A DNA stretch of 64,000 nucleotides from Lophium mytilinum (taxonomy: Eukaryota). A program made the translations under genes and the position numbers. Positions 987 to 58,951 of this stretch are shown piece by piece. Numbering within the stretch: the stretch's first letter is position 1; every line of letters starts with the position of its first letter. The notes beneath the pieces are model-generated. The model ran no database searches, was not told the origin of the DNA, and was given only the letters and a program-made list of their open reading frames with translations. Where the stretch lies: NCBI GenBank assembly GCA_010093605.1, contig MU004181.1, positions 744,001-808,000 on the forward strand, in the 5' to 3' direction.

Positions 987-1492
987 TTTGGGTAAGTGGA
1001 TGTGGGTAGAGGAGGCAAGGTGTGGTTGTGGTTGAGGTTTGGGAGAGCTTTCGAGGGGAGATGGGAGCTTGGGGAGGAGCGATGCGGGGTGGTGGGGGAT
1101 GTGGATTTTATGGAAGGGGTGGTTTAGAGGGTTTATTCGTGAATAATATTGTCTTGAACCTTTGGAGCTGGGATAGGTTACTATCCGTTTCGTTTCGCTC
1201 CAGCTTCAAAGGAATCTCTCTGCTACAAAAATAGGTTCCTCACCTCTCCCCCGCGTCCCGATCGCCAGGCACCGCCGCACGTCCCCTCCACAAAATCTCG
1301 AGCTCCGAACGTCATCACCCCTGACTAACCATTCACATCCGCTCCATTACACCTCGAGTCCCACCTCACTACCCCTAGAACCATGATCTAAAACCGCGAG
1401 CTTCGCATTCTCAAACTTTCCTCCGCTCACACCCCTTCCCGTCCACACGCATCCTCACACAACTCGGCGCCGAAAAGCCCCAGGGAATCGCC

Positions 1493-2905: not shown

Positions 2906-2949
2906 GTAGTAATGTAAGATACTGTTCATTCTGCTTTCTCTCGTCCAGT

Positions 2950-3245
2950 CTCAGGCAATTGAAATCAGAGTGCTGTTTGACTAATTCCCTCCTGAATAGC
3001 TGAGCTACTCCTTGCAGTGGTGTTGAGTGAGCAAGCTTGAAGCCGATCGGTAACAAGTCTGGGTGCCTAGACTCAGGGCCTGGTACTATCTAGATGTCCA
3101 CTTTCAGACAGTGCAAATCGGACTGCTGTTCGACTCACTACCTCCTGGCTAGCTGGGCTACTCCTCTCAGTGGTGTTGAGTGGGCAAGCTTGAAGCCGAT
3201 CGGTGATGAGTCTGGGCGCCTCGGCTTAGGGCCTGGTACTATGCA
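2950..3245 (+). repeat. Two tandem diverged copies of a 153-bp unit
   Basis: GTGGTGTTGAGT at 3017 and 3170; shared GCAAGCTTGAAGCCGATCGGT and AGGGCCTGGTACTAT; many differences are transitions. Confidence 0.9.
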
Positions 3246-3860
3246 GTGTTTGGAAACCGCATTAGACAAGGTGTTTCTGCGGCGTGTGGGGGGTATGCCA
3301 CAACGTGAAAGATTGTGGCTTGACAGCATCTGTGAGTCGGAATATATTCCAATTCATTCTGCTATCTCCCAACTAATTCGAACAGCAGCTCAGTTGGCTC
3401 AGCGCCACCAACATCCCCTCCAACAGCTATCTTTCATTCAGTGTACGCCCATCTTCCTATCTACTAGTGCTTTCCACTCGTGTTCTTCGTGGAGGAAGTC
3501 GCGACCACATCACCGAAAACGCGCTAGCGTCTTCCTTAACCTCACCTCACAACTTCAACCTGCCCTCTACACTCTCACCCAAACACTTCACAGCGCATCC
3601 GACGACTATCACTGGTGTCACAGAGACGTGTACGGCGGCGTACCCTGCAGCGCCGCAGGCGTGCCAGCAGAACCTCAACTCCATCCCTCTCATTCTGACC
3701 TCCTCGCCCACCACTTCACCAAACCTCCGCCATTCGCAGCCTCCAAACAAGACTATTCACATCGGGCTTGCTGCCGTGAGCCGCTGCTCGTGGGACGCCG
3801 CTGTTAGACTGTCCTCAAGGCAGCGACTAGGCCGGAAATCGCTAGGCCAGATACGTCAAG

Positions 3861-4730
3861 ATGGTGTACGGTCCTGATGGGAAGGTCTTAGAGTAGGTCT
3901 AATCCGGACTCCATTCTCCAACTTTAGTCGGCTAACCCAAGATTAGCCTAGGAACCAAGGTCATCACAATGCGCGTGTGCAGGGAGCTGGATGACTACAA
4001 GGACTTTACTGTGCACGAAAACCTTATCCGCGCACACTCTCCCTTCGTCGACGCCGCGATGCGAGGTGACTGGAAGGAGGCCAGTGAACGGATGGTCAAG
4101 ATGCGGGGGGATCCTGCCTGCTTCCAGCTCTACGTCCAATGGCTATATTCGCGGCAAGTCATCCCCTACCGGAGCAGCACGCCTTGGATGAAAGGGAGTG
4201 ATCGAAGCAGTCCCGCATTCAAGGCATTTGATGAACCATTCACAACTGCATTCGGGTTACTTGTGCGCTCTTGGATCCTCGGCGACTTACTGCAGGATAT
4301 CAACTTCCAAGACGCTACCATGGATGCCTGCGCGGAAATGTGCGATGATAGGACACGGGGCTCCTGGTCTGTACGAATACCTGGTGCACTTGTCAATCAC
4401 GTCTATGCCTATACTACAGAAACATCTCCACTGCGCCTCCTGTTAGTTCACCACGCTATCGTTAACCGCGACACCTGCATCAAAGCCTTCAAAACCGAAG
4501 ACTATCCCAGCCAGTTTCTTACAGATATGGTTGTAGCTAGCTTGAGTCCTGAGATTCTCGATGAATCGGTCAGCTTCGATAACGATATCGTGAATGTTTG
4601 CGAGATGCGGCACTTGCACCGACGGCGGGCATTGGACTGCTACAAGACGAACACCCCGAAGCCGACGGGATGGGGCCTGAAATATGGAGGAGACCCGGAC
4701 CCGGAGGACGGCGAAGGCGGCGTTGCGTAG
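3861..4730 (+). CDS. BTB/POZ-domain protein (expanded fungal family). Exons 3861-3892, 3947-4730
   Basis: FTVHENLIRAHSPFVDAAMRGDWKEA..DPACFQLYVQWLYS is the fungal BTB signature; intron GTAGGT..GCTAAC..TAG joins ATG 3861 in frame. Confidence 0.85.
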
Positions 4731-4858
4731 CATAGGCGTTGTACACTGATCTTCACAAATTCTGAACAATCAGGCATCCTAGCCTCTAGATTGCAACCAT
4801 ATCAATGAACACAATTTATAACCCTTCCTAACTACCTTCAATATACAGTGACAAGCCA

Positions 4859-5056
4859 CAAGTCTGGGTACACGGGTACGCCACTGCTTGGGGTCCCCCG
4901 CATGGATTCGAAGACTCAGGGGTGATGTCAAGCTTCAAACAGTGCAGATTAGACTGCCTCTTGACTAATTGCCTGCTTAGTAGCCAGGGTTCCCCCAACA
5001 GTGGTGTTGGGTTGGCAAGTTGGTGGCATTTCTGTCTTGATCTGAATGCCTAGATC
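4859..5056 (+). repeat. Further, more diverged copy (plus tail of another) of the 153-bp unit
   Basis: CAAGTCTGGGT (4859), AGACTCAGGG, ACAGTGCAGATTAGACTGC, TTGACTAATT, CAGTGGTGTTG (~5000), GCAAG, TGCCTAGA are colinear with 2950-3245. Confidence 0.75.
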
Positions 5057-5304
5057 GTGTCCGATGGCTCATACGCCCGACATTAGGGCTCTAGATTCAG
5101 CGTTCTGCGTACACTACCAATCTACTGAAGTACCCCTGCACAGTTATAAGCCGACCAAACGCTGGAGTAGCAGACGGTGATTCTACTCTCGATATTCTAT
5201 CATATTCCACCAACCTGAAAATTAGCTCAACATATAGGTCTGCGGTAGTATGACTTCAATTCAGGCATGTCTTCTTTTGGATCCCATCTTAGTCTATGCA
5301 GAGG

Positions 5305-5540
5305 TTTTGAGGCGCCCCAAACAGCGGTAAACAGGCCGACTACATGCGCGTGAGCTCTTGCTGATTCGCGCTCTTGAGGCCTTCGAATACCAACGGAAAT
5401 TTTATAATATGCTAAAGCACCTCAAGCAGCGGCAACTAGGCTGACTACATGCACATCAAATCTGTCTGATTTAGGCTCCCACGGCTTGTGAATATTAGCG
5501 GGATTTTTAAAAGGTGTTGAAGTACCTCAAACGGTGGTGA
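5305..5540 (+). repeat. Diverged ~105-bp tandem repeat, about 2.2 copies
   Basis: GACTACATGC at 5338 and 5443; colinear CAGCGG, CTGATT, GAATA blocks; third partial ACCTCAAACGG near 5525. Confidence 0.7.
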
Positions 5541-5865
5541 GCGCGTATGCCCGAACTTCTGGCAAAGCATCCTATCACCGCACTCCATGAATCACCACTA
5601 CAGCATTCGCATCTTGGATATCCTTTTTGTCGTATCGAAGCACTTTTGTATTATTACAGTCTCCCCAGCGCTCACGCTCTAGTGTTACAATTCCCAGTCC
5701 GCAGACCTCTCATCCCCTCACCACATTCCCACACCCATCACCCCCACCGCACCCCCCAGATCTAGCCGCACGCATCTACCACCTCCCCGCAACCGGAACC
5801 TCCCACCACCGCCCCCCAGCCAGCGCCACCCACCCCCCAAAACCCCCCTCCTCCACGCCCAATCC

Positions 5866-7175
5866 TCACGCCCCCCTCACCCTCTTCCTCGCCGGACTCC
5901 TGGGTGGGTCCTTTCCCTCCCCATCTTCCCCTTCTTCCTCCCCCTCCTCCTCCACCCCAGCCAACCCCCCAAACCCCTCAACCTCTCTCTCCCCAAACCC
6001 CCGCTTCCCCGCCGTCCCACCCGGCGTCAACGACCGCTCGCGCGCCAATCTCTGCTTCTCAAGCCGTTGAGTTACTTCATCCGATATATCTTCATATTCT
6101 GCTTGTTCAGCGCTACCACTCACCTCTGCTTCCGGCTCCTGGGTGCGCGCACGTTTCGTGCTGGGGCCACGCTCTGGGGAGTTGTTCTCGATGTCGTTCA
6201 CGTAGCCGGCGGAAGGAGGGGGGCGAGAGGGGGAGCGGGCCTCGACGCTGCGTTTGCTCCCAGTGGCTGGCGGGGGCGTCGGCGTGGTCTTTGGGAGGGG
6301 TTTCGAGGCCGCGACATGCTTGGTGCCGAGGAGTTTGCCGTTCACGACGGCCATGGCGGCGTCGACGGCGGCGGGGGTTTTCATGGTTACGTAGACGAAG
6401 AAGTGGGCGTTGATGGGGGTGGGGGCGGTGACGTAGACGCTGTGGTGAGGTTTAGTGAGGGTTTGGGGGTATTTGCAGAGTTTTAGGGTAAAGAGGGTGT
6501 AGGCATAGTGGAGAAGAAGTAGAAAGAGGGGATCTTACACGGCGGACGGGTCTGGGCAGAGGGCACGGATCTCTCTCGGCGTGACATCGCTGGGGACGCC
6601 CCATACTGCCATCTGGCGCAGCTCACGCAGAGCGAGGTCTTGGCCCTCTGCGGTCCAGTACTCTTCTTCGCTCGGAGGTGGGTTGTTCTCGAAGTACCCG
6701 TTCTGAGCCATATTGTTAGTGAAGGGTGTTTTGGTAGGCGTGAGGTGGAGGTGAGGTTGAAGATGTGGTTGAAGATGAAATGGGTCCTTTGAAAGCTCTA
6801 CATAATGATGAGAAAGAAAGATCAGAAAGCTTACCCACGCGGTCTCCAGCTTCATGAGAGACGTCCTCTGGGACCTCGCAGCTTTCAGGGCATTCTTGGC
6901 CTGCGCGTACACCTCGCCCAGGGCCGGGTCACTAACGTCCCCCTCTGGCTGGGCTTGTTCTTCCAGAAAGGCGATCTGTGCGTCTAGCTCCGCGGCGTAG
7001 TGTTGGATGCGCTGTAGAAGGGGCGTTATGTTAGCTATATCCGCTGTAAGGTCCTGCTAGGAGCAGCGGCGCCATGCAGGGGCAGATTTCCACCGCGAGC
7101 AACAAAACGCGTGCACGAAGCATGAACAGTGGGTAGGCTTACGGGAATAACAGCGGGAACGAGTCTAGGTGCCAT
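5866..7175 (-). CDS. Hypothetical protein with a degenerate RRM and a disordered C-terminus. Exons 7175-7143, 7011-6835, 6702-6539, 6439-5866
   Basis: Three GTAAG..CAG introns (GCTAAC, ACTAAC, ACTAAA branch candidates) keep one frame; RNP2-like MAVWGV and RNP1-like FFVYVTM followed by AAVDAAMAVVNGKLLG. Confidence 0.65.
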
Positions 7176-21245: not shown

Positions 21246-23153
21246 GCGATGTCAGTTGCGCGGCATATGGCAGACGTCGAGTATCGCATACGTTTGGCTA
21301 GGACAAAACCAGCACTACTACTTTCACTACAGCACACCAACGAATTTCTTTCTCAGACTTCTAATGGCGGCGAATCAGGGCGGTCCCTCTTCTCTATTAT
21401 GCTTTCTTTGTTATTTTCTATTTCCGTGTCGGTGCATTTGGAGTACTTGCGTTGTCGCACAATGGAGCGAGAGCGGAGAATTTGGGAAGTAGGGGGCGGA
21501 GCACGATGTTACGAACGGCCTTTTTTCTTTTACAGCCAGTTGCTTTGTGTCCAAATTGTAGTTGCTTACCTCACTCCTTCTCACACCGGCGCGTTTGTTC
21601 TGCTTTCTTTGTTGCCTTTTTGAGCTTTTCTCCCGATCAATCTGTGTCACAATCCAAACTCCTTGGTCACAATTGTAGCATCTTTGGATAGTGGGGGAAC
21701 TCTACTCTACCTCACTACTCTACTCCTCAACCCTTAAAAGTTTTAGTACTCTTTCCTTTTGGCGCTATTAGCGTGACGGGCGGTGGTATTCGCAATACTT
21801 CCTCTTCCTTTGCCACCTCCCTCTCTCTCTCCTTCGAAGTTGGCTCTAGGGTTCTCGGTTGGCATGGACGGCAACGGTGGGCGGCGCGGCGGCAAGGTGC
21901 AGTCTTTCGATAGGGCAGGCGGTTAGTGGGCAACGGGTATCTCGGAAACCTCTCTCTAATTCGGGGGCTCGGCTGGAAGCGTGGATGGGAGGCTTTGTGT
22001 TCCTAGCACACTCAGGTGATGGGCGGCGGAACGGTGTTTCGGGTGTGTGTACTTACTGGGACTTGGTTCCCCTCAATTCACGATCTTAGACATGGCTGAT
22101 GCGGATGATTTGTGTGACAGGTTCTAGTCTGGTTCGTGATAAAGGGCCTCCACCTATCCTATTGGTTCTGGGGAGCTGGATTCGTCTCAGCTTGAGCGCG
22201 AGGCGGCTTGTCCCATCTGGGCGACACAGATAGGTAAAGGCTGGTTCTGAGGCCTTGGGCGTGGGGCCTCAGGCGCCGACTGGGGGCAGCGCGCGCTTAG
22301 TGGAATTGCACACAATTGTCGTACAAACTAGATGATGAATCAAGGTATGGGGGACTCATGCCCACTTATCCATCATTCCCTAGACATGTTTATAGCAATA
22401 GCATGTTTACGCTCTTGTCACACGCTATCCTTTCATTGTTTGCTAGCGGTTGACTGCTATCAAGCTTGGCTTTGCAAGCATCGCATCTATCCCGCTCCAT
22501 GTCCGTGTTGCAACCCCATTCACACAATACACTCAAACCATCCTTTATTTACTCCGCACCGAATCAACTATTTACCCCGCTTCGATCCTTACCACGACTC
22601 TCACAATCAATTTTGACTTTCCCCACTCTCCTTCTCCCGACGGCTCGCTCGTGTGGCACGAGCCGATCCCGTGTGCGGTTAGGGCGGGACGATAGCGGGT
22701 CCCGAAATAGATGCGAGCTTGGGCCGCGGAGCAGCTCGTGGGACAGCCTCGCCTTGCAAGGTCGGAGGAAAGATTCGCGGGTGTGCGCCTCCGATCTGCG
22801 TGGTGGAGACTGGAGCCTTGGCGCTGGATATGGGATGGAGAATTGAGGTTCTGTAGTAGAGTTGCGGTTCTGCATGCAAAGTGTAGAGTGCTTGTTGGTA
22901 GCTCCCAATAGTCAAGTTCCCGGTGTTGAAGTTGTGAAACGAATTGGGATGGCTGTGCCGTGGTGATGCATCCGATTCAAGCTTGAATCCTCCATCCAGC
23001 ACAGCCTCATTTACTCACCTTGCACCTCTCTTCAACCACAACTCAGCCTTCTTTTCTGCTGTCTGTCATTATCCCTTCGTGAACCTCCTCATCTCTACTG
23101 CGACGCACAGCTAGACTGAACAAACCTTATTCCAACGTCCAGCTCTGGCCACA

Positions 23154-25133
23154 ATGGCAGACCCCTCCGTGGCCCCAGTCTCCTCCATCAAGTCGCGGAT
23201 AGCAGCCCTCAACCTCGAGAAAGTACACCATCCTGAACCCGGAGCCCCTCCTCCCTATTCCTTCGAGCACGCCGCTGTCAAGAAATCGCGACCGCCCCCG
23301 CCTCCGCCTTCGAAACGCCCCTCGATCGAACCGCGGAGCCAGACGACGAACAATCCTCCGCTTCAGAGCAATGGGACTACCTCTACACGAGCTATCGGGA
23401 ACCAACCCATTAATGGCAGCGATAATGCCCCGAAGAAGCAGCAGCCTGCTCTGCCACCGAGACTGCCCCCGCGAACAAACTCGAACGTAGCCTCGCAGCC
23501 GGCCCCACCCAGCCTTCCTCCGCGCAAGGCTTCGGAGCATAGCATAAGGACAAAGGGTTCTGTGGAATCTATCTCGACAATAGCATCGGGCCGGTCTGCG
23601 GTGTCGGTTGGGTCTACGAGGACGAGTTTCAGTGGCGCGTCTGGAGGCGAAGGGCAACAATACAGGGTCAAGGCACCGCCTTATGATCCGTCGAAACTGC
23701 CTCCTCTGCCGCCAAAGAAGGCAAAGGAAGAGCCAAAGCCTACTCCTTCGAGGACGGCCTTGAAGCCTACACGTTCGTCGCCGAGTGTAGTCGAGAAAAC
23801 TGAGCCCAGAGCTTTTCAACCACCACCAGTCCTTCCATCTCGACCTCCCCTCCCGTCGCGCCAATCTACAACTCCAAACCCCGTCTCAGCACATATAGCA
23901 CCACCCAAGCGATCTGCTCTATCTTTTGGCCTCAACAAGAACCTCGAAACCCCACCGCCGCTCCCTCCAAGCCGTCCCGGCCCCGACTCCGCGGGCTCAC
24001 CACCCCCCATCCCCCTCTCCTCCCGCCCCAACCTAGCGGCCCTACAAGCCTCAAAACCAAAGAGCACCTCCAGCTGTCTCGTCTGCCGCGACTTCTCCGC
24101 CCCCGACGCCCACGCGGCCCGCTTCCCGCGCCAAACCCTCCCCACCCAAGACCTCTCATGGCTCGCGACTCAACTCACCTCCCCCTTCCCCTCCCTCACC
24201 GACAGAGCCCGCACACTCTTCACCTGGCTGCACCACAACATCGACTACAACGTCGCCGACTTCTTCAGCGGCAACCTCAAACCCTCCACCCCGGCCTCAA
24301 CCCTCTCCACCGGCCTCGCCGTCTGCGAAGGCTACGCCGCCCTCTTCACCGCCCTCGCCACCCACTGCGGCCTCGAATCCGTCGTCATCGGCGGCCACGG
24401 CAAAGGCTTCGGCCACTCCGCCCTCACCCCGGGCGCACCGATCCCGCCCTTCAACGCCGGCCACGCATGGAACGCCGTGCGCATCGACGGCGGCGAGTGG
24501 AAGCTCATCGACTGCTGCTGGGGCGCCGGCAACGTCGGCGGCGGCGGGTCCGGGCAGGCCTACGAGCGCAACTTCAAGCCGCAGTTCTTCAGCATGCCGA
24601 ACAATGAGTTCGCCGCGCGGCACTTCCCCGAGGATAATGAACTCCAGTTTAGAACGGATGGCCGCGTGATGGGGTGGGAGGAGTATATGCTCGACGACGC
24701 GGGGGAGCGGGTGCAGGTGTACGGCGGCTGTTTCCCGGAGCATGGGATTGGGGAGAGGACGTTTCAGCCCGAATTTAGGCATGTGAAGGCGGATGCGGGC
24801 GCGGGGGAGCTGGTGAGGTTTCGGTTTGGGAAGGTGTGTGAGCATTGGGAGAATGAGAGGTGTGGCAGGGGGAAGATGTATCCGATGGTGTTGCATGTGC
24901 CTGGAGTGGGTGGGGGGAAGGAGGATTATCTAGCGTTTGAGACGGATGGGAGGGTTTGGTGGGTGGATGTGCCGAGGAGGGAGTTGGGGAGGGCGGGGCA
25001 GAGGGTTAGTGTGTTTGCGGTAACGAGTATGGGGGGGAGGGATGCGAGGGGGGTCAGTGTGGGGGAGTATAAGAGTAAGAAGGGGAGGGTGGGGATGGGG
25101 TTTGGGGGGGTGTGTGCTTGGGATTTGGTCTAG
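23154..25133 (+). CDS. Transglutaminase-like (Cyk3/kyphoscoliosis peptidase family) protein with proline-rich N-terminal half
   Basis: RTLFTWLHHNIDY, AVCEGYA, GHAWNAV, LIDCCWG give an intact Cys-His-Asp triad; many PPxLPxR SH3-ligand motifs. Confidence 0.9.
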   Translation: MADPSVAPVSSIKSRIAALNLEKVHHPEPGAPPPYSFEHAAVKKSRPPPPPPSKRPSIEPRSQTTNNPPLQSNGTTSTRAIGNQPINGSDNAPKKQQPALPPRLPPRTNSNVASQPAPPSLPPRKASEHSIRTKGSVESISTIASGRSAVSVGSTRTSFSGASGGEGQQYRVKAPPYDPSKLPPLPPKKAKEEPKPTPSRTALKPTRSSPSVVEKTEPRAFQPPPVLPSRPPLPSRQSTTPNPVSAHIAPPKRSALSFGLNKNLETPPPLPPSRPGPDSAGSPPPIPLSSRPNLAALQASKPKSTSSCLVCRDFSAPDAHAARFPRQTLPTQDLSWLATQLTSPFPSLTDRARTLFTWLHHNIDYNVADFFSGNLKPSTPASTLSTGLAVCEGYAALFTALATHCGLESVVIGGHGKGFGHSALTPGAPIPPFNAGHAWNAVRIDGGEWKLIDCCWGAGNVGGGGSGQAYERNFKPQFFSMPNNEFAARHFPEDNELQFRTDGRVMGWEEYMLDDAGERVQVYGGCFPEHGIGERTFQPEFRHVKADAGAGELVRFRFGKVCEHWENERCGRGKMYPMVLHVPGVGGGKEDYLAFETDGRVWWVDVPRRELGRAGQRVSVFAVTSMGGRDARGVSVGEYKSKKGRVGMGFGGVCAWDLV

Positions 25134-25977
25134 GGGAGGGGAAAGAGGATGGGTTATTGGTGCGATGTGGATGGGTTGAGGAAGGCATCAAATTTAGTCG
25201 GCTATGGCTAGTTGTTAAACGGGTGGGTTGGGTATACCCTGGTTAATATCTGGATCGTCTAATGGATTGGAGTTTGGGTTGAAGGGGAGTTAGAATACGT
25301 ATCTATTTATCATCACATCATGTCTTTTGCGTAGAAATCGTGTTTTTGAGAATGACTACGTGAGCTGTATAAGTATAGCGGTGAAAATTGCTATATACCC
25401 ATAGCTGATGCAGATGAGGTCCGGGTAATGCTAATGGGACGACTGTAAAACCAGACCTCGAGGCCAGTGAAAGGTGATAAAAGCCTACGAAAACCGCGTA
25501 TCAGAGACAATCATTCTCATTTGAAGTTGGTGAGTCTATGTGTACCAGATGGTAAATCCTTTTCAAAAGTAAGGAGTTCAATGCAGCAAGAGGCTGTCGC
25601 TGCAACTAGGGTTGATAGTTCACATAGCTTTGATGATAGAAAACTTGTGTAGCTAGCGACAGTAGCGATAGTTAAACTGTTGAAATTGCAGGAGTCTTGT
25701 GTGTAAACGTACCCGTATAACTTCGCTGGCCAAGTCCTTCGAGGGTATTTGGAGGGTTTCCATCGTCGGACTCGACATTAGGCGACCCCGGACGACAAAG
25801 TGGTGTCGTGTTGTTGAGCAGTGATGTATAAGAAGAGCGGGAAGCTGAAAGCAAGTGACGAATGTTTTCGAAATATGGAGATCTAAACGGTGAAAGCCCA
25901 TTTTGATGTAGCGGACAGAATTCGAACTTTACATTCTGAAGCTTTGGGTAGCTGCGCTGTGATTTCGGCAGAAGCGT

Positions 25978-26880
25978 TTAGATGTTAGGAAAATATTGGG
26001 ACCAAGATACGGGTTCGTACTTGCCAGCTGGGACAGACTCCAGCGCAACAAAAGCCTTAATGACGGGAAAAGGGTTGAGGAAAAGGTACTTCCCAAGTAT
26101 GAAGTCGTCGAGGCGGTAAGACGAGCAGGAAAAAGATAGAGAAAGCGAGTGTAGCGCTCAAGACTCGCCAGTGCACCCCCCCAAACACCAATCGAGGATT
26201 ATTGTCAATTTTCGCTGATTATTGGCAATCGGGAACGAAATCGACCAATTATTTTGACATCAGCCAATGCTTGATTATTGGGCTAATTAGACCGGTCGCT
26301 TAACGGGGGGCAGCCCTCCAATCGCCAAACGGGGTAGCACAAGCCCCCGATTGCCAAAAATTGAGGTTGTACACGCCCCCGATTGCCAATCGGGAGGGAA
26401 CACAAGCCGATGGAACCCCCCAATTGCTAATCGGGGGGTAGCACAAGATTACCTCAAATTCGCAATTAGGAGGGAAAATAAGATAGCCCCTAATCATAAG
26501 AGGGCTAATTCTTAAGATAAAAGTTACCTTCTAAGATATCTATAAGTAGCGTAAACTTACACCTCTATGCTAGATATACTAAATATTTCTAAGATTTAGG
26601 ATGTAAATCTCCCCTCCCGATTAGCAATTAGGGGCTTGTGCTACCCCCGGTTTGCTAATTATCCTAATTAGCCCAATAATTAAGCATTGGCTGATGTCAA
26701 AATAATTGGTCGATTTCGTTCCCGATTGCCAATAATCAGCGAAAATTGACAATAATCCTCGATTGGTGTTTGGGGGCGCACACCAGCAATAAAATTCCGT
26801 TATTGTCGGAAATGGGAGAAGCCAGACAAGAAAAGAAGCTGCACCAGTTAAAGTTTGAAGGTTTAAGAGTAATATAGCGT
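25978..26880 (-). pseudogene. 3' fragment of a paralogue of the 31682-32947 membrane protein, split by a TIR element
   Basis: GAASFLVWLLPFPTITEFYCW [element] RVLS..; after a frameshift AFVALESVPAGKYEPVSWSQYFPNI* versus GAVSFLAWSFSFFTTTELYCWRVLS..AFVALRSVPAGVYVSVSWSQYFPHI*. Confidence 0.85.
26172..26782. mobile_element. Non-autonomous DNA transposon (MITE-like), ~119-bp TIRs, TG..CA ends, CCAG target-site duplication
   Basis: 26172-26290 is the near-perfect reverse complement of 26664-26782; CCAG at 26168-26171 and 26783-26786; subterminal GGGGTAGCACAAG repeats; TpA-rich core. Confidence 0.92.
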
Positions 26881-26895
26881 TCATCACTATGTAAA

Positions 26896-28578
26896 CTAAG
26901 CTCTGCAAGCAGCCAAGTCTTCAACAGTAAGCGCTAGAAGCTCCCTATCTTCGCTCTTATCCATCTCATCACCATCCCCATGCGACAGACATCGTCTTAC
27001 AACGCCTTGATAGATGCTCCCACACCGGAACCCCAACTCGGCCACTAAAACGTCCAAAGACTCTTTCCGCACCAAAGACTCGACGTTGTACCAGAACCCG
27101 ATCTCCAGCAACATGATCCCTAAAGCATACACGTCACCGGCTGCAGTCTTGCGTTTCTTCGGATCGCGTGGAAGGTACAAGGTAATGTCGTGATCTCCCT
27201 CTGATGGCATTGAGAGATCATTTATAACGTCTTGGGGCCTCGCATACGTGAAGCCGCTGAGGAAGAGCTTCCTATAGCCCGCTTTATGGAAAAAGACGAG
27301 ATTGTGACTATGGAACGCTTTATGCACCCACTCAACAGCGACCAAACTACCCAATGTCTTCGCCAGGCCGAAAGCAAGATCGAAGCGCTCGCTGAGTGAT
27401 GGCGGTGGTTGCTTAGTGCGGCGACAGGTGCGGACATGGTCGTAGAAGGAGAGCGGCGGTCTGGGATCTGCAAAAGGGGCCTTGAAGACGAGGCCGATGC
27501 GGTCTTGCGACAGGGTTGCAATCCACCCGAGTGGTTCGGGGATGCTGAAGTCTATCGCGCGCGCTCGGTCGTCGTCGTCGCTCCTGTTTGAGGACTCGGT
27601 GGACATGATTTTGAGCATTGCGATGAGGGAGTCGAGGCAGTATTCGGTGGCTGCGTTGGTCGTTTGCGATGCGAACTTCTCACGCCATTCTACTAGGATT
27701 GGTGTCTCGGCGCCGTTGACAGTGTTTTGTGGAGGAACATACACGCCATAAGTACGGGGCCTGTATGTATCTTCGGACTGTTCGCTATTTGACCATTGAA
27801 TGCACTTTGTCACCAGACCAAATCTTTGTAGAGGTGGGTCGTTAGAGGCCGGCTATGTCACTTTCTTAGTAACAGAGTAGAATAACAAAATAGCCGATAT
27901 TGTTCGTCTTACCGGAAGGTCATCTATTATTCTCACGCCCATCTCCTTGATCTTCGCACCGCGATTCATCGCCGGATACTCATTCTCGGAATCCGCTTGC
28001 ATCATTCTCATATCTCCGACGGTGTCTACAGCTGCCAGCGGGGCTGCAACTAGTCTATACTCTAAACCCACTCTCTTCGCATCCAGTATCAGATCTTCAA
28101 GATTATCATTCAGTTCCCTTAGTCTTTCAATCGACTCTTTGATCTGCTGCTTGTCGCTTGCCACCCACGATGTCTTCCTGACGCCTTTATGCAAGAACGT
28201 TGGCTTGAAACTCCTTGCAGTCAGTGATCTCTTGACCTTCAGCTGTGCGGGCGGCGGCGGAGAGGAACCTTGAGGCATAGATTCGCCTTCAGTCTTGTCG
28301 TGCCGTATGATAAGATCATTCAACTTCGTTAAGGTGTTTTCAATCACCGGCAACGTCTTGACGATCTAGTTGTCCGTACGACATCGCTTCGAGTGCAAAA
28401 CTATCTCTTTCAGTTGGTCTAGCTTGTACTTCTCACGGTCGAGAGATAGGACGAAGTACTGGATGTCCGCATCAAAATTTTTCCAGGTGTTCTGGTCGTA
28501 CAGCGAGAGACATGGTTGAAATTGCGCGATGATCTGAGCGGCTCCGAGAGCGAGACCCACGGCCTCCGTTGTAGACAA
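26896..28578 (-). pseudogene. HeLo (prion-inhibition) domain + kinase-like domain gene with TTG start and one in-frame TAG (28368-28366); intron 27912-27853
   Basis: EAVGLALGAAQII, DIQYFVLSLDREKYKL and SWVASDKQQIKESIERLRELNDNLEDL resemble HeLo; C-terminal WVHKAFHSHNLVFF, LSGFTYARP, GDVYALGIMLLEIGFW; three ORF-track pieces join in one frame. Confidence 0.75.
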
Positions 28579-28878
28579 GCACTATTGAAATGAGGAATAG
28601 TCGAAAAATTGTACGTAAGGCTTTGTGGCGGGTAGAGTTGATTATATGCGAGTGGAAAAGGCGCAGTTCTGAAGGCCGCCCCGGCGGCAGCCTTGCGATT
28701 GCACTGCCTCATCTCGGCAACTTTGATGAACCCACGTACCAAAGCGTGGCCACAGAAGTCGAAAAGTCGTTGTGAGAATGACCGAGGTTCTGTGTTTCGA
28801 TCCCCGTACTAAATAAAGCGATGAGTGGCCTGAAGGGCGTATTAATGTTTCCGGTGATTTATAAAAAATTGAAAAAAA

Positions 28879-29002
28879 GGGTCGCAGCGAGATTCGAACT
28901 CAAAAACAAAAACTTCGAAGAAGGCGAGCCACTCGCAAGCTTACTTGTCAACAACGGACACCGCTAGCAGTACCACGACTTTCGTCTAGTTACCACACGA
29001 CC
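28879..29002 (-). ncRNA. tRNA-like Pol III element or tRNA pseudogene, identity undetermined
   Basis: Acceptor stem GGTCGTG/TGCGACC, T-arm and B-box GAGTTCGAATCTC, T7 run directly downstream; non-canonical 124-nt body. Confidence 0.6.
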
Positions 29003-29221
29003 ATTGGAGCTTTTCAGAGATTGAGCGTTTGGTGCAAACCTCGCTTGGAAGATGGAATACTGCCAGAATATTCTAGTATATAAGGCCTTAAAGATAGTTT
29101 ACTCTCACATTTTAAGTTATGACAGGTTATGTCAAGATCTTGGCTCAGTGCACATAACGCATAAGCTGCCCATCTCAGCCATCGGTCCTGACAACGGACC
29201 GCCTTGTGGCCGGACCTATAA

Positions 29222-30525
29222 CTAATGGATCCACCAAAACCAAAGGACCTCATCTTCCGACGAAGGGCCTACACTTATCCAGCATAATGCGAAATACGTC
29301 GCAAACATGGAAACTAAGGCGATCAAGATTGCGACAGTAACCAATTTGGGTATGTACCAAAACCAGAAGAATGGAAGCTTCACCCAAGTATAGATCGTCA
29401 GCGCAAGCCAAAAACCGGCTGCTATTCCACCGGAGATGAAAGCATGCCGTATGCTGACCGACCATCCGTGATTAAATAAGTTGGATTTTCGCATGCCGCG
29501 GATGGTCATGAGATCTAGCGGTGAACCTTGGAAGAACTCGAGGAGACTTTGCTTGGGAAAGCCGCTCCGGCGTTTCTTGTTGTTCGAGAAGGTATCCAGG
29601 GTTGCGCCAAGTGTCTCGAAGCCTTTGTAGGACGTCGGAACGATGATTTCCCAGTGAGTGAATGGGAGAAGAAATCCCTGCAGCGAAAGAGCGTATAGAA
29701 GAGAGCGAAAGTCTGCATGAAGTCGCATTGACTGCTCAAGGATCGAAAGCTTCCTGTACGGTATGCCAAACCAGACTCCAATCGGTGAGTTTTCTGCCTC
29801 GGGAAAGATATCAAGCAGACATTGCCATGCGGACTGAACATCTTTGCAAGCGCGTTTTAACAGCTCTCCCCCACCCTCAGATCCGCGGCGATCGTAGAGG
29901 CTGCTCACCTGGGCGAACTTGTCGTTCGGGTTCCACAAAGCTGATGAGAATAGACTAAAATCTCCGCCAGTAGTGGAACTGTACAGCAGCCGGTACGCAT
30001 AATATCCGCCTGCTTCTCTAAGCTTACCGGGAATATAGCTGCCTCCTCGAGGGAGTTCACCTGTGAGCAGTGAGCTGTTGCTAGCGCCAAAGAAGAACTA
30101 TATAATTTCTGGGTGCACAAAATCAATGGACATTGCTTGATCCAAAACAGTGGTGTAGGGGCTTGTCTTTTCCATCAGCGAAGCAACATGGTCGTATCTT
30201 AGCAGGAACAACGAGAAGCCCCAGAAGCGGCGGTACACGGCATGGAGCAGGGGCGGAAAATAGAACTTTCCCATCATCTGGCGACAGTCAACACTGGAAG
30301 TGTCCGAGTACGGCGAATGGCCGTGTGGATGGTACGATTGGACGCCCATTTGCTTCAATTGGTATCTTAGACTTGTATCAGCTACGCCATTCAAACTCAC
30401 TGATTGGGAACTCACGCAAACCAAAGATCACGGTGCTCCGCATACGCTAGGATGGTATATCCATTTGCTTGATCTGGCGGTCCAGGAGGTGTTCGCCTCA
30501 TGTCCTCCAGGTGTAGAGGCTGCAT
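29222..30525 (-). pseudogene. Hypothetical ~415-aa protein with two C-terminal TM helices, interrupted by one in-frame TAG (30100-30098). Exons 30525-30416, 30365-29222
   Basis: GCCATG start, GTGAGT..GCTGAT..AAG intron; ORFs 30098-30424 and 29222-29938 share a frame with 53 open codons between them. Confidence 0.6.
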
Positions 30526-30684
30526 GGCGCTTTGGGGGCCAAACGAGGCTGCGCTATTCTACATCTACTTCTTCCTGCATGGGTCCAACGGCTGGCCAAG
30601 GCTTCATCATGCCCTCTGTGGCGCCAGAAGCGCTCTTTCCCCCGTCTTCTTGCGTGGTCCATAATTCCATCGCTGGCCGCGAAC

Positions 30685-31227
30685 ATGTTCCCACGACGCG
30701 TCTTCAACAGGGAGGACTCCGCCGCGGATGCCGTGTCGCTGCATAGCTTTGTTGGCGATGGGGCAGATCAGTCGGACGACGAACAAGGGATGCGCTCGAG
30801 GAATACTGCGACTCTAGACCTGGACCTGTACCTGGACGTTGACGACGGTGATGAAGGGGACCGAGGGGACGAGCCCGCCCCGGACGGCTACTTCGTCCTC
30901 GCTTGCCAGCTCTTCTCGACTGGATCGTATGCCGTGACCTCAAAAGGTCCGCTACCCCCAGGATTTGACCGTGGAGACTACGCAAAGGCCCACCATGACC
31001 TTTATCAAGACCGAGATTCCCCGTCTCATTCCTGGCAACCGTGGCTGTCTGGTCGACCTACAAGATTCGCACTTCCCATCACCATATGGCTCGTAGTCCT
31101 ATTTCATCTAGCGGTTTCACACACGTCAGTCACAAAAGTACGCCTCTACGGGCCATGTGCTATTGCATCTGCTTTTGCGTATATTACCAACTTGATCATC
31201 ACTCGCCAAGGTCTCTGCAGTGCATAA
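30685..31227 (+). CDS. Hypothetical small acidic protein with one hydrophobic segment
   Basis: Open frame from MFPRRVF, acidic tract, FALPITIWLVVLFHLAV; possible GTACGC..CAG intron makes the 3' end uncertain. Confidence 0.35.
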   Translation: MFPRRVFNREDSAADAVSLHSFVGDGADQSDDEQGMRSRNTATLDLDLYLDVDDGDEGDRGDEPAPDGYFVLACQLFSTGSYAVTSKGPLPPGFDRGDYAKAHHDLYQDRDSPSHSWQPWLSGRPTRFALPITIWLVVLFHLAVSHTSVTKVRLYGPCAIASAFAYITNLIITRQGLCSA

Positions 31228-31681
31228 CCACGGTTTGCGATTGAGCATACCGGGAAAGAGCGAGTACTTTGAGATTGCCGATGACGATGAGGAGGAAGAT
31301 GGTATGGTTATGGTGAGCCCGGATTGAAAGTAACGTTGTAGATCTAGTCACGCGGTACCATCACGCGATTGCAATGCCATGGAGTAGTTTGAATGTGCGC
31401 GCTCGCTGGGGGAACGAGTAGAACTGCTGGTTAGTCAGTAGTAAGTAGGTATTTGCTTAATTTAAAAACGAATCAGTAGATTAGATACAAATGAAATAGA
31501 TAAGTAAGTACCAATGGGCAGATTTAGTTACATATACGAAATTATGGTACTTGTGTCACTCGAGCTGAGGAAAAGAAGAGGAAACAAGATGTAGAAACGA
31601 ACGGTATATTACTTCCCGGCTTAGTTAATTGGTTGTGGACACCTTTTGCGTTGGTGCGCTACCTTATGGTGGAAGAAGCTA

Positions 31682-32947
31682 TTAAATGTGAGGGAAATAT
31701 TGTGACCAAGAAACGCTAACGTATACTCCCGCTGGAACAGACCTTAGAGCAACAAAAGCCTCAATGGCGAAAAAGGCTCTAAGAAAACAGTATCCTAGAA
31801 ATAGACTGGTGGCGAACATGTTTTCCTTAGGATTCATCAATACTAGCAAAAGCAAAACGATTGAGATAGCGGTTGCAACGCATGAGAGGACTCGCCAGCA
31901 ATACAACTCCGTTGTTGTAAAGAATGAGAAACTCCAGGCAAGGAAAGATACTGCACCAATTAAAATAAATGAGGAAACAACCACGAGCTTTCCTGACAAA
32001 ATTAAATTATCCTCTCGTCTAATATCGTCTTCGACTTTTGCTCTCACGGCGTCAACTTCGTCCTGTTCACCAGGTACAGTGAGCACCAAAGATCTCGTGA
32101 TGTCTTTTGGCTTATCCCACCAGCTAAGGGACGCTATCACAGTACACCCAATGTTGGTGAGGGTAAAGATTTCGAGGGTGCTGATTGGAAGATGCTGTGA
32201 GGCCCTCCCGATCGTGGTGGCCAAGAACCAGGTGAGCTGCAATAAAGTGATAGTCTTAGCAAAGCTATCGGCTTTGCTCCAGTCCGCTCTATCTCCTCTT
32301 GAAAACTCGGGTACCTCGACGAGGCCAGCTTGTGCGAGGTCCATGAATAAGGCTACATTCAGCTGATGAATTTGGCCGCCCTCGAGTTTAATCGTCATTC
32401 CTTCCATACAGACGAAGTGTGCGTGGACCCTGTTGGTGTAGACAGACTGAAGTATTCGGGTGTTTCGTTCCTGGAGGCTTAGATGTCTCTCCAGAGGCGG
32501 CAGGTTGCCCTCTTCTACGTCACCCTACTTGGTCAATCAGCAGCCGTGCTTCTCGTTTGACCTATATTGCCACGCATCGTCGTAACTTGATATAAGCGAT
32601 GTTTTGCCGTTGTCAGGGCCTGCAAATGGACTACTGAATGGCAGCCTTACGCTGATTTGCGGGCTCAGTGCATGAATCCTCTGTATCAGTCGCTTCGTTG
32701 CTACGGAGTCTGCAGCAGCTATCAGCACTACAGACTCCGGAAAAAGAAGAATCATCACTGTAAGCCAGAACCTATATCTGAAGTTGGTCCAAGAAGACCA
32801 ATAGGGCGGCGGAATTTCAGGGTGATATGCGGTCCACGTGCAGAGAAAGATGGTGAATAGGCAACTGTATAGCAACTCCGCAGTGCCGCGCCCTTCAGGA
32901 CTTGAGACCCAGCCAACTCGGGTAGAGTTCAATGTGTTGTTGTGCAT
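31682..32947 (-). CDS. Multi-pass membrane protein of a common uncharacterised fungal family. Exons 32947-32651, 32524-31682
   Basis: VGWVSSPEGRGT..SCLFTIFLCTWTAYHP, DWSKADSFAKTITLLQLTWF, LPISTLEIFT, WWDKPKDI; GTAAGG..TAG phase-0 intron. Confidence 0.8.
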
Positions 32948-33733
32948 GTTGATAGTTTGTGCGAGGAAAGATCGGATGGATGGCTAATTGCTTCCGAATA
33001 GCGAGCTTATACGTTCCTAACCGCCACTTTGGCCAATCCGGCTCCAGATGGGTGATTTGAGTCTTGCTTTGATATCAGGAGTGCTGCTGCAGTAGGGGCC
33101 AGAAGGATGCGAGGATGGACTGCGTGAGAGGTGATCGATCATGTATGTGAAAAGTTGCAACAAGGCTCAACATAGAGTAGGAATAAAAGGAACGGGTTCC
33201 TACGTGGATATATATGTTGAGACGGGACAAGGCGGAGGCTGAGTCAAAAGCGAGATGTATGGTGGGCGTGGCGGGGGAAAGTAGCAAATCATATGGGCAT
33301 ACGAGCCGACCCCATCATGCCTCATATGGAACGTCCTACCCATGTGACTAGTACATAACAATTAACCCGGAATGACGCTGGCATTGCTGGGTGTGAGTGT
33401 TATGACAATTAATTTGTCGAGGAGTCGTTGAAGGGCGGCCTTATTGAGGGAAACGATATCTCTATAGAGATGAGCAATCTAATTTTCGTTGCATAGAGTT
33501 GCTCGACACAGAGAATTCTTGACTGCGATTTAATGCATTGGTGGTGTTTAACTGAAGTCGCTGTTGCCGTGTGCCACGGATGAAGTAATGTCTTGGCGCT
33601 TTCATATTCGATAATACGAGGGTCCAGATTATTGCCCGTACAACGAACCTCACTCTCGCAATTACAACCTCTCTCACTTTTCATCCTTCTCAAGATATGT
33701 GCAATCCCTCGGCCTGAAAAGCTTCTCGCAATC

Positions 33734-36261
33734 ATGGCCTCCAGTCTCATCGGCATTTCTGTCATCCTCGCTCTCAGGAATCCACCAAACACCGTCGTTC
33801 AAGGTCGTGTGGCTCATGTCAATCCAGAGACGGCGACGCTGACACTGCAAAATGGTATTTGATCCCTATATGCTCACAAGGACCTCACGGACTAATGCGC
33901 ACAGTTCTATTTCCTGCGACCGGCCACCGCCTAGACAACTACACCGTTGAGGGCGCATCTATCGCTGACATCAAGATCCAAGAACCACCACCATCCCAAC
34001 ACCATATTCCACCTCCTCCGCAGGTGCAACACCAGAATGGTCCTCCTCCCCAGAATGCTGCCACATTCCCTCAGTACCAGCAATACAACGCGCAGCCAGT
34101 ACCTACTCCGCCGGTGCAGCAAAAGCAAACCTTTGTGGATCCAGCAATTCTCAGCGTTGGTAGACGACCCTCGAATCCACCACCTCCAAGCCAGCCCGTA
34201 TCCTCTATTCCCCAGGAAGCACCTGCTACGCCTATCAAGCCAATTAACACGGCGACAGCAGCTCAGATGCCCTCGAACACTTCCCCTTTCATCGGCAATG
34301 CCAAAGATCGCAGCTCGAGGAAGCCAAGTGCGGCCACGTTGAATGCGCCATTCTCTACAATAGATATTGCTGAAGCTGGAGAACCGGACTCGGACGAGCC
34401 TACAGTTAAGGATGGGTCAGTGCGGAGGGCTAGCATAACAAAAACGAGGAATGGGAAGCCCATGGACGACCCTGTCTCAAGCCAGAAACAGGCGGAGGCC
34501 GCCGCAAAACAGGAGGAGACTTGGAAGCGTACTAGGCGAGGTGGTAAGGCGCGAAGGAAGGAGCTTGCTGCTCAGGAGAGGCGCAATGGAGCTGACATTT
34601 CCTCTCCAGAAGCCGTTCGCAAAGGGTCAGTGCAGCTTTTCTTTGACCTTCCGTATCTTCCAAGAACCATTATACTGAACATGCATGAAACGTCCAGTCG
34701 AGGAACCGGCTGGCGACAGACACCACTTCTCCAAGCCCCGAATCAAGAAAATGTCCCCACACGAGATGGGCAGCAAGAGCGAACACCTGGTGTCATCGGT
34801 GGCAGAGTCGGACAAGAAGCAGCGAACGCCTCGAATCGGAAGAATAGACGCCAAAAGGCTCTCGAGGCTACAAATGGATGGGCTACGGAGGATGCTACAG
34901 ACATTCAGGAGCTTCCGGAATTCGACTTCGCCGGAAATTTGTCTAAGTTCGACAAACGCTCCGTCTTCAATCAAATACGCAATGAAGACACCACGGCTGA
35001 CGAAGATAGACTTGTCAGCCATAACCGCTTGCCTGCTAGGCCAGGAACACATGGTGGCAAGAACCTTCATCCTACAGAGAACGTCCTCGACAACAGGCGA
35101 GCCAGGACTGCCTCGGAATCTGATACTGAGGAGCTATCCGACTTCGGCAGCGGACAAAACTCACGACGGGCCATGTCCCGAGCCTCCGCCAAACGCCAAC
35201 CTACCCGTCAAGGAAGCGGTGTCCAGCCAGATATTGACACTCCCAGCCACTCTGGCGCACCACCGAGTCTCCTATCTCGTGGTACCCGCTCCTTGATCTC
35301 CCGCCCCTATGCCACTTCCTCCCACGCCACTGGCAGCCCTAAACCTGGCCGCGGTTCTAGTCCCCCAGGCTCACCTTTCCCAGATACCAGCTCGACACGC
35401 GCCTCCTGCCTCCGCATCGTCTCCAGCAACCGCAAATGCAACACCATCACCCCCGGCGGCATGCTCGCCGTCGAAGAGAGCGCCGAAGTTGATTTCGGTC
35501 TGACCGAAGACATCATGGCCGAGAACGCCGGCCGTGGCATCGCCGAAGTCGCCCTCTCCGCCATCAACCCGGGCGGCCGCCGCCTCGCACGGGAGAACCC
35601 CAACGCCCGTCCCGTCATCGTTGTCCTGGCTGGTAACCACCGCGGAGGCTCTCGCGCCATCGCAGCGGCTCGCCACCTCCACGAACGCGGCATCCGTGTC
35701 ATGGTTGCTCTCCTCGGTGCCGATCGCCCAGCAGACTGGGACAAGGATGTCCGGCGACAGGTCGATCTCTTTCGCAAATTCGGCGGTTGGGTCCGCACGT
35801 GGGGCGAAGTCGAGACCGCGCTAAAGAAACTCGAGGCTCCACCTGAACTTATAGTAGACGCACTCCTAGGCCGGCATCGCGAGTTCGATGCCCTCGGAGA
35901 CGGAGACCGCGGCACCGTCCTCTCAACCGTCGGCTGGGCGAACAAATCCCGCGCCGCCGTCCTCGCTGTCGAAACGCCCTCCGGCGTCGCGGGCAGCACG
36001 GGCGAAGTCGCGATCCTGGAAGGCGAGCCGCTGGAAGTCCGCGCGAAGTATATCGTCTGTCTCGGCGGGCCGCGCACTGGCCTTCTTCGCGCATTGCAGA
36101 ATGGCGCCGGGCGGGAGCCGGAGTGGCTGATCTGGATCGTGGATATCGGCGTTAACAAACCCTGGCGGGCGGCTGGGGGGAAGGGCGCTAAAGGGGTGCA
36201 GTTTGGGGGCGAGTGGGTTGTGCAGGTTGCGTTTGTGGAGGGGGAGGAGGTGGGGGTGTGA
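33734..36261 (+). CDS. EDC3: Enhancer of mRNA decapping Edc3 (LSm, FDF, YjeF_N). Introns 33855-33904 and 34626-34697
   Basis: N-terminal LSm-like strand pattern, GWATEDATDIQELPEFDFAGNLSKFDK, MAENAGRGIA and VLAGNH of YjeF_N. Confidence 0.93.
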
Positions 36262-50983: not shown

Positions 50984-51081
50984 GACACAGTGCCAGAGTG
51001 GTTAATGGGTATGACTCGAACGATTCATTCTTCAGCTATCATATGACTTCGGTCGCACAGGTTCGAATCCTGTCTGTGTCG
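50984..51081 (+). tRNA. tRNA-Ser(CGA) with a 17-nt intron (51021-51037)
   Basis: Acceptor GACACAG/CTGTGTC, G73, anticodon stem TATGA/TCATA with loop CT-CGA-A, long variable arm GACTTCGGTC, GGTTCGAATCC, T-run at 51092. Confidence 0.95.
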
Positions 51082-51439
51082 CAGAACACGCTTTTTCTTT
51101 TGTCTTTTTTGGCGACTAAGAGAGCGGGGGTGGTGGTGAATATTTTTGCTGCGTGTGGGTCGAATGGGGGAAGGTTGAGGCGGATAGATAGGAGGGAGGT
51201 ATAAGCGAGACGAGGCCGGGGCGCGTCATATATTTTTTGAATCGAGGTCGTGAGCCTCACGATATCTCGACGATCTTTATTCAAGCTTCAAGGAAACGCG
51301 CGCATAATAAGTCAATCACAACCCCACCCCCTTAACAATACCCACGAATACGAATCAAACCCATAAGACTGTCCTCAACGCCCACGCGCCACATCGCGAA
51401 CCCCAATCCATAGCGACCTCTCTCAAACCACACACCACA

Positions 51440-58635: not shown

Positions 58636-58951
58636 GGGTCATTGGCTAGAAACAACGTCAATTCACGCCCACATGAAGTCCACCAACAACATCCATCTGT
58701 ACCTTAGTAGTCAAGAGTTCCTAGAACCTCCCACTCTTTACATTGAGCCCCAATTAACCGCTTTTAGTGCAGTCTATACGCTGTTAGCGCGGGCTATACG
58801 CTGCCAGTGCAGTCTACGCGCTCATCTCTCGAGCGGAATCTTACCCATCTCACCATCCACTGTTCTCTTCAACATCTTATATATCAGCGCTCTCAGCCTT
58901 TTTCTCAGCTCCTAAACCCGTCGTCACTTACAAAATTCCGCATACCTCACA

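Follow-up and report, generated by a model that had tools for sequence, protein, structure and literature searches.

A transcribed MLKL-like gene without a start codon beside a truncated kinase-ankyrin gene in Lophium mytilinum, a probable recent pseudogene pair

Introduction

An MLKL-like architecture, in which a HeLo or HELL domain is joined to a kinase or pseudokinase, has already been noted for fungi in a 2025 review (PMC12881547, as far as its accessible part goes). Here we describe a locus with such a gene in a 64-kb stretch of contig MU004181.1 of Lophium mytilinum (assembly GCA_010093605.1, positions 744,001 to 808,000), which is referred to below as the window. On the minus strand, positions 25943-32947 hold, in this order, a membrane-protein gene (gene A), a spacer, a gene for a protein with two transmembrane (TM) helices (gene B), a short repeat, a HeLo-pseudokinase gene (gene C) and a relic of a gene A paralogue (A') that is split by an element resembling a miniature inverted-repeat transposable element (MITE). 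Like the fungal HeLo/HELL-kinase proteins in the accessible part of the review, gene C combines an N-terminal HeLo domain with a C-terminal kinase fold from which the HRD and DFG aspartates are absent; unlike them, the Lophium copy has no start codon and carries a premature TAG. The setting also differs from that of other fungal HeLo systems: here neither an amyloid motif nor an NLR partner was seen, and the neighbor is a kinase-ankyrin-membrane gene.

The animal RIPK3-MLKL pair offers a second comparison. In L002, a fungal contig from a soil metagenome that carries relatives of both genes, a kinase gene that appears from its sequence to be active lies directly upstream of the HeLo-pseudokinase gene, and by analogy a kinase and a pseudokinase-guarded membrane killer might divide the labor in the same way. 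However, no RHIM motif is present, the L002 kinase is joined to ankyrin repeats and two TM helices, and the linkage is seen in one relative only. The likeness is one of gene layout, and the kinase part is gone in Lophium.

A third comparison concerns the stop codons. In Fusarium graminearum, PUK1 and 70 further genes have premature stops that are corrected by UAG-to-UGG editing (PMC11156358), and in the accessible parts of the literature adenosine-to-inosine (A-to-I) editing of mRNA is described for Sordariomycetes and Pyronema alone. As far as these sources describe them, the stop-correction sites of F. graminearum and Neurospora (PUK1, AMD1 and further genes; PMC11156358, PMC5496914) resemble gene C in having an in-frame UAG where relatives have TGG, in a kinase-like gene. 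They differ in that Lophium belongs to a class without reported editing and its RNA contig shows no G at the site; moreover, the start codon of gene C is lost too, and the TAG of gene B does not correspond to a Trp.

We found that the B-C pair is probably the product of a recent pseudogenization, by ordinary point mutations and a rearrangement, of a module that is intact in related fungi. Judged from sequence, the module in relatives would pair gene B, as a kinase-ankyrin-membrane gene, with a HeLo-pseudokinase, MLKL-like gene C downstream of it on the same strand. The analysis covered one Lophium mytilinum strain and the 64-kb window, and the relatives with DNA were L001 and L002 only.

Gene C has lost its start codon and carries an in-frame TAG

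The features of the B-C pair are as follows.

29222..30528, minus strand: gene B remnant, a short upstream exon and a main exon with two C-terminal TM helices (homology)
30098..30100, minus strand: in-frame TAG of gene B, where P0014 and L002 have Arg
28872..29150, minus strand: multi-copy short repeat (raised depth, contigs leaving at both ends)
26896..28581, minus strand: gene C, HeLo and kinase-fold gene (Pfam, AlphaFold, Foldseek, RNA contig)
28567..28569, minus strand: ACG at the start-codon position of gene C (codon alignment)
28366..28368, minus strand: in-frame TAG of gene C, within the HeLo domain (codon alignment)

Exon 1 of gene C runs to 27913 and is followed by an intron (27912-27853) and exon 2 (27852-26896). 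A Pfam search with the read-through translation placed a HeLo domain (PF14479) at residues 9-169, across the TAG, with an E value of 1.1e-11 and 45.3 bits against a cut-off of 23.2; DUF7580 gave a weak match (E 0.043). The AlphaFold model of exon 2 (pLDDT 79.7, pTM 0.82) was compared with the Protein Data Bank using Foldseek, which returned at least 500 matches at E<=0.001 (best E 1.3e-8, TM 0.48-0.56). Among the matches listed, all were protein kinases, and the human MLKL pseudokinase (7jxu) ranked 29th. In the family alignment, with motifs mapped by eye, H-K-x5-N stands for the kinase HRDxxxxN and G-F for DFG, and the catalytic aspartates are absent. The HeLo match, the kinase fold and the missing aspartates together mark gene C as a HeLo-pseudokinase gene with a predicted MLKL-like architecture.

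The closer relatives of gene C are P0015 (65% identity) and P0016 (53%), and their DNA was recovered from metagenomes as L001 and L002. Gene C aligned with both contigs without any frameshift. Its TAG is at codon 68, where two of two relatives with DNA have TGG and the residue in distant homologues is L or F. The 60-nt GT..AG intron, which is removed in the RNA contig, contains a second in-frame TAG (27855-27853), and the relatives have an intron of 51 nt and 59 nt at the same place. The Pfam match and the L001/L002 alignment thus agree with the initial annotation, which had described a HeLo-pseudokinase gene with one in-frame TAG and no frameshift, the other TAG being intronic. The missing start codon had been overlooked there: the start position is ACG in the window and ATG in L001 and L002. 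A stop at 28584-28582 lies just upstream of the ACG, and gene C is therefore left without an in-frame ATG. Given the ACG start and the TAG at codon 68, gene C has no intact open reading frame (ORF) for a two-domain MLKL-like protein. The public model P0003 ("partial") begins gene C at an internal Met, which is not conserved and is Ala in L001. There is no second copy of B or C, as the DNA depth is that of single-copy sequence and no other Lophium protein was among the matches.

Transcription was followed in X3, a second sample, which we read as an RNA run since six of the seven joints listed were found in X3 only and had GT..AG or CT..AC ends. These data are assembled contigs of one run. Record 19 spans 27090-27852 and 27913-28632, showing that gene C is transcribed and its intron correctly removed. 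The contig keeps the genomic letters at the TAG (A at 28367) and at the ACG, with no other letter at the latter. Around the TAG of gene B, the X3 bin depth was 1.15.

Gene B is a 5'-truncated remnant

The frame of gene B (30427-29222) contains a single TAG at 30100-30098. An upstream exon was recognized by homology at 30516-30418, with a putative 50-nt intron (30415-30366) that has an AAG acceptor. The homologues P0014 (59% identity) and L002 aligned straight across the TAG without a change of frame, in line with the earlier description of a two-TM gene with one in-frame TAG and no frameshift, and two C-terminal helices were predicted in the P0014 model (pLDDT 67.8). Of the relatives compared, the two closest, P0014 and L002, have Arg at the TAG (CGC in L002). 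In the family alignment A5, which has 15 rows, 13 of them with a residue in this column, R occurs four times, E and S three times each, and K, A and Q once each; the row P0017 and the L002 row appear to be one protein. Trp was present in 0 of these 13 rows, and a UAG-to-UGG change would therefore not restore the ancestral residue.

Gene B corresponds to the C-terminal ~400 aa of a family of proteins with a protein kinase domain (Pkinase), ankyrin repeats (ANK) and TM helices. In L002, short introns with GT..AG ends link ORFs matching Pkinase (E 9.1e-28) and ANK to the B part, and a plausible start of its own is missing from every downstream ORF. When 1.84 billion representatives were searched in full with HMMER, only 19 family members came up at E<=0.001. 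Nine were scanned, and in three of them, 926-1482 aa long, the B part is C-terminal and lies behind ankyrin repeats, and in two of the three it is also behind a protein kinase domain. These are P0021 (1482 aa) and P0026 (1397 aa), both Pkinase-ANK-B, and P0031, which is ANK-B. Among the scanned family proteins of 900-1500 aa, the B part was C-terminal in three of three.

No tblastn match between the kinase/ankyrin part in the L002 ORFs and the 64-kb window was found at E<=1e-3, and the homology of the window to L002 starts mid-exon, near 30516. What is left of gene B is thus a 5'-truncated remnant whose kinase-ankyrin two-thirds is gone.

VIA-align gave no convincing match to the fold of the B domain. 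The best hit (Z 7.3) spans the two-helix hairpin only; an ankyrin-repeat chain aligned with a Z of 6.4 over 207 residues, with the P0014 model (pLDDT 67.8) as query. An ESM Atlas search with P0014 gave no usable match. In the public model P0008, B is joined to the initial 71 codons of C over an "intron" of ~680 nt, and the TAG of B is spliced out. Both P0008 and P0003 are artefacts that arise from avoiding the stops.

The two genes are linked in a relative

In L002 (positions 2-5968), a gene for Pkinase, ankyrin repeats and two TM helices is directly followed, on the same strand, by an intact HeLo-pseudokinase gene. The distance from B to the ATG of C is 358 nt in L002, compared with 653 nt from B to C in the window, a difference that roughly matches the length of the repeat. 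In the single relative where linkage was testable, it is thus preserved. The L001 sequence upstream of C is only 446 nt long, contains no B-like frame and speaks neither for nor against linkage. The neighborhood in L002 is otherwise unlike the window and contains no A-like gene. We did not find the pairing of a kinase-ANK-TM gene with a HeLo-pseudokinase gene mentioned in the accessible part of PMC12881547. The apparently conserved pairing of a kinase gene and an MLKL-like gene is a lead worth keeping.

A multi-copy repeat lies between B and C

The repeat in the B-C spacer (~28872-29150, ~250-280 nt) had a DNA word depth of 970-1100, compared with ~160 in the flanks, and an RNA depth of ~1040. 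Several contigs showed variant letters within it, with exits at 28872-28875 and 29128-29152, and on the minus strand a T run terminates all copies seen. The initial annotation had called it a tRNA-like element. That an element exists here is confirmed by its multi-copy nature (depth ~1000 vs ~160), but its identity as a tRNA is not. A T-arm/B-box-like motif and an acceptor-like stem could be seen by eye; however, ARAGORN with default settings, with and without introns, found 0 tRNA genes in the repeat, and 0 in 14112 variants from which up to two GT/GC..AG segments had been removed in silico. With a relaxed threshold it gave one weak tRNA-Cys call at ~28645-28757, outside the repeat. Rfam had 0 matches at E<=1 in 24000-35000, and the fold of the repeat was no better than that of shuffles (z-score -0.05). 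By ARAGORN, Rfam and the fold z-score the repeat is thus not a tRNA gene, nor, as we read it, a suppressor tRNA.

The repeat is probably an insertion in the B-C spacer, and we take it as a dispersed RNA polymerase III (Pol III)-type or short interspersed nuclear element (SINE)-like element. It resembles the SINE-like Pol III-type repeats of filamentous fungi in being a 250-280-nt multi-copy element with a terminal T run, but unlike these it was matched to no named family.

Base composition, stop contexts and substitution rates

Sequences subject to repeat-induced point mutation (RIP) have a TpA/ApT ratio >0.89 and a (CpA+TpG)/(ApC+GpT) ratio <1.03. The corresponding values were 0.66 and 1.35 for gene B and 0.69 and 1.13 for gene C, which are those of normal genes and not RIP-like. 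Elsewhere in the window, 58001-59000 was the sole clearly RIP-like 1-kb stretch (GC 0.445, TpA/ApT 1.52, (CpA+TpG)/(ApC+GpT) 0.87).

Leaky read-through contexts are marked by C at +4, UGA-CUA or UAG-CAR-YYA (CARYYA). The two stops are in the contexts UAG-AUC-GUC and UAG-UUC-UUC, with A and U at +4, so that neither TAG lies in one of these leaky contexts. Hairpins predicted at the stops were no better than chance: that at the gene C TAG had a z-score of -1.13, with 30 of 200 shuffles folding as well, and that at the gene B TAG a z-score of 0.52, with 134 of 200.

Pairwise dN/dS (omega) was 0.05-0.08 and was computable only for the 67 codons before the gene C TAG, synonymous sites being otherwise saturated (pS ~0.8). 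Owing to this saturation, rate tests see only long-lasting relaxation, and their outcome is as compatible with a recent break as with continued function.

Weighing the explanations

We favor a recent pseudogenization of the B-C pair, which is probably the correct reading, on several grounds. The HeLo part of gene C carries two independent changes of the knock-out type, ACG and TAG, where two of two relatives are intact. Gene B is truncated and has its TAG at an Arg position. The RNA contig shows the genomic letters at the TAG and ACG of gene C, the stop contexts are not leaky by the known motifs, and the hairpins are no better than shuffles. Furthermore, there is mobile-element damage nearby, namely the spacer repeat and the MITE-like element in A', and there is no second copy of B or C. 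On this reading, a recent rearrangement would have removed the kinase-ankyrin part of B. Three point-type lesions (ACG for ATG and TAG for TGG in C, TAG at an Arg codon in B) and the insertion of the repeat between B and C would, together with it, have left a still-transcribed pseudogene pair from which the full-length killer protein is presumably not made. The lesions would be ordinary substitutions plus one rearrangement, perhaps too young to show further decay, and if C lost its start codon first, a later nonsense change by drift would need no special cause. The locus would then be a cell-death gene pair caught soon after its inactivation, amid mobile-element debris.

Several observations weigh against this explanation. 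The gene C contig is correctly spliced and has a depth of 35-41, similar to that of the intact gene A (38-48). There is no frameshift or further stop in ~537 codons of C and ~375 codons of B. With L002 as the outgroup, unique amino-acid changes in gene C numbered 39 in the window and 45 in L001 (chi2 0.43), and in gene B 36 in the window and 31 in P0014 (chi2 0.37). In the kinase fold, only two otherwise invariant columns are altered in the window alone, the same number as in L002; one of the two deviations in the window is a radical Gly-to-Glu change beside the catalytic-loop motif. In addition, a TGG-to-TAG change at a conserved Trp is also the expected look of a stop that is corrected by editing, and the RNA evidence consists of contigs from one run with no recorded growth stage, in which minority variants are hidden.

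In another reading, the pair is disarmed but useful. The lesions would then take away just the membrane-attacking HeLo part, and selection would maintain a shorter product, either the kinase-fold part begun at the internal AUG (as in P0003) or the membrane part of B, which might serve as a decoy or regulator. Change is not in excess in the kinase-fold exon (23 unique changes vs 26 in L001), the transcript level is normal, and the public annotation models such a product (P0003). We nevertheless consider this unlikely. The internal Met is not conserved (Ala in L001), and by reading of the sequence it comes after several out-of-frame AUGs of the transcript. Ahead of the TAG, gene C has not changed more than elsewhere (7 unique changes vs 5), which recent breakage fits equally well, and the Gly-to-Glu change beside the catalytic-loop motif is radical.

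The initial annotation had raised the idea that toxic parts of the pair are gated by recoding of their stops. For gene C, this would mean a death module in which the near-cognate ACG and the UAG silence a HeLo executioner until A-to-I editing (UAG to UGG) or read-through opens it. The TAG sits exactly at the TGG position of two of two close relatives, the frame is otherwise intact with no acceleration of rate, and the gene is transcribed and spliced. The ACG is flanked by A at -3 and G at +4, both adenosines of the edited type lie in predicted hairpin loops, and UAG-to-UGG correction has the precedent in F. graminearum cited above (PMC11156358). Against these points, an AUG cannot arise from ACG by editing, the TAG of gene B is at an Arg position in a family without Trp there, and B is without its kinase-ankyrin part. 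The hairpins do not exceed shuffles, the stop contexts are not the known leaky ones, and the RNA contig shows A at the TAG of gene C. The premise of Sordariomycete-type editing does not hold for this genome either, since Lophium mytilinum is a Dothideomycete and not a Sordariomycete; mRNA editing has been reported for Sordariomycetes and Pyronema, whereas Aspergillus nidulans and Botrytis cinerea were found to lack it, and the accessible parts of these sources contain no report of it for Dothideomycetes. Gating of this kind is therefore very unlikely. Its most elaborate form, a fungal switch resembling RIPK3-to-MLKL in which an executioner silenced by ACG and UAG would be opened stage-specifically by editing or read-through, is highly improbable. 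Were it true, premature-stop-correcting editing would be reported for the first time from outside Sordariomycetes and Pezizomycetes, with a cell-death gene as the gated target.

Decay by RIP acting on a duplicated segment is extremely improbable. A TGG-to-TAG change is indeed a TpG-to-TpA change, and one 1-kb stretch of the window (58001-59000) has RIP-like indices. However, the indices of B and C are normal, ATG-to-ACG is a T-to-C change and not a RIP change, and B and C are single-copy. The limits of RIP are roughly 400 nt and 80% identity; A' is the single duplicate here, with a length of ~300 nt and an identity of 70-75%. The initial annotation had preferred decay over recoding and had ascribed it to RIP-type changes; the first part is probably right, on account of the ACG, the TAG and the truncated B, whereas the second does not, given the normal indices and the ATG-to-ACG change. 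It had also looked to CAG or TGG in orthologues at both TAGs, neutral drift, lack of transcription and lack of linkage as signs against recoding, and here the picture is mixed: relatives have TGG at the TAG of C but Arg at that of B, no sign of neutral drift was seen, C is transcribed, and linkage is kept in one of one relative.

Beyond the pair itself, two points are of wider interest. Should the pairing of kinase and MLKL-like genes seen in a distant relative be general, it could represent a kinase-triggered route to HeLo-type death in fungi beside the amyloid/NLR route. The TGG-to-TAG change in gene C provides a specific site for examining stop-correcting RNA editing in Dothideomycetes.

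Gene A, its relic and the surrounding elements

The features on either side of the B-C pair are as follows.

31682..32947, minus strand: gene A, intact membrane-protein gene (ORFs, RNA contig joint)
30529..31681, no strand: A-B spacer without a recognizable gene (tblastn, Pfam, RNA depth)
25943..26852, minus strand: relic A', in two parts, 26852-26784 and 26171-25943 (local alignment to gene A)
26171..26783, no strand: MITE-like element within A', with 120-nt terminal inverted repeats

The order A, B, repeat, C and A' had been described correctly in the initial annotation, as the repeat searches, ORFs, Pfam matches and alignments agree. Gene A has two exons, 32947-32650 and 32523-31682, and its 126-nt intron (32649-32524) is spliced out, as seen from the joint 32523->32650 with CT..AC ends in X3 only. 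No Pfam domain was matched in gene A. Its family is widespread in Ascomycota; an ESM Atlas search gave 30 matches, to "hypothetical protein" clusters, with a score of 0.96.

In the relatives, the position of the 1.15-kb A-B spacer is taken by the kinase-ankyrin part of gene B. The RNA depth of the spacer is only 0-1.2. On the plus strand, 30517-31227 holds an open frame of 236 aa within the spacer, which has no Pfam match and hardly any RNA cover.

The 3' end of gene A is duplicated: 25967-26088 and 31671-31792 are 72% identical over 122 nt, 5704 nt apart and in the same orientation. The repeat search thereby supports the earlier claim that the 3' end of the membrane-protein gene occurs twice, ~5.7 kb apart. 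Local alignment extended A' to ~300 nt that are ~70-75% identical to gene A, with indels, and reach ~25 nt past the stop codon. A' is thus the 3' end of a gene A paralogue and begins ~45 nt past the stop of gene C. Comparison of the DNA downstream of A and A' showed homology in only one 90-nt stretch, which ends ~25 nt beyond the stop codon.

A 613-nt element splits A'; its inverted ends, 120 nt each and 97% complementary, have 373 nt between them, and the homology to gene A picks up again on both flanks. Contigs break at the element, where the DNA depth is raised to 235-330; this depth suggests that the element is multi-copy in the genome. The element at 26171-26783 is short, non-coding and apparently multi-copy with terminal inverted repeats, as MITEs are; its target-site duplication was judged by eye only. 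It resembles the MITEs of filamentous fungi in its 613-nt non-coding sequence and long inverted ends, but differs in that no named family was matched. Its interior contains short repeats of a GGGGTAGCACAAGCCCCCGATTGC-type unit.

Just downstream of A', spliced RNA contigs on the minus strand cover 25331-25713 at a depth of 54-118, with GT..AG introns at 25544-25484 and 25712-25653; no convincing ORF or homologue was seen for this transcript in three frames. Three G-rich 36-nt units with a 48-nt spacing lie at 24978-25109, at the 3' end of a transglutaminase-like gene (23115-25133). A tRNA-Ser(CGA) gene that the default run without introns had missed was found at 50984-51082 by the intron option of ARAGORN, with an intron of 17 nt.

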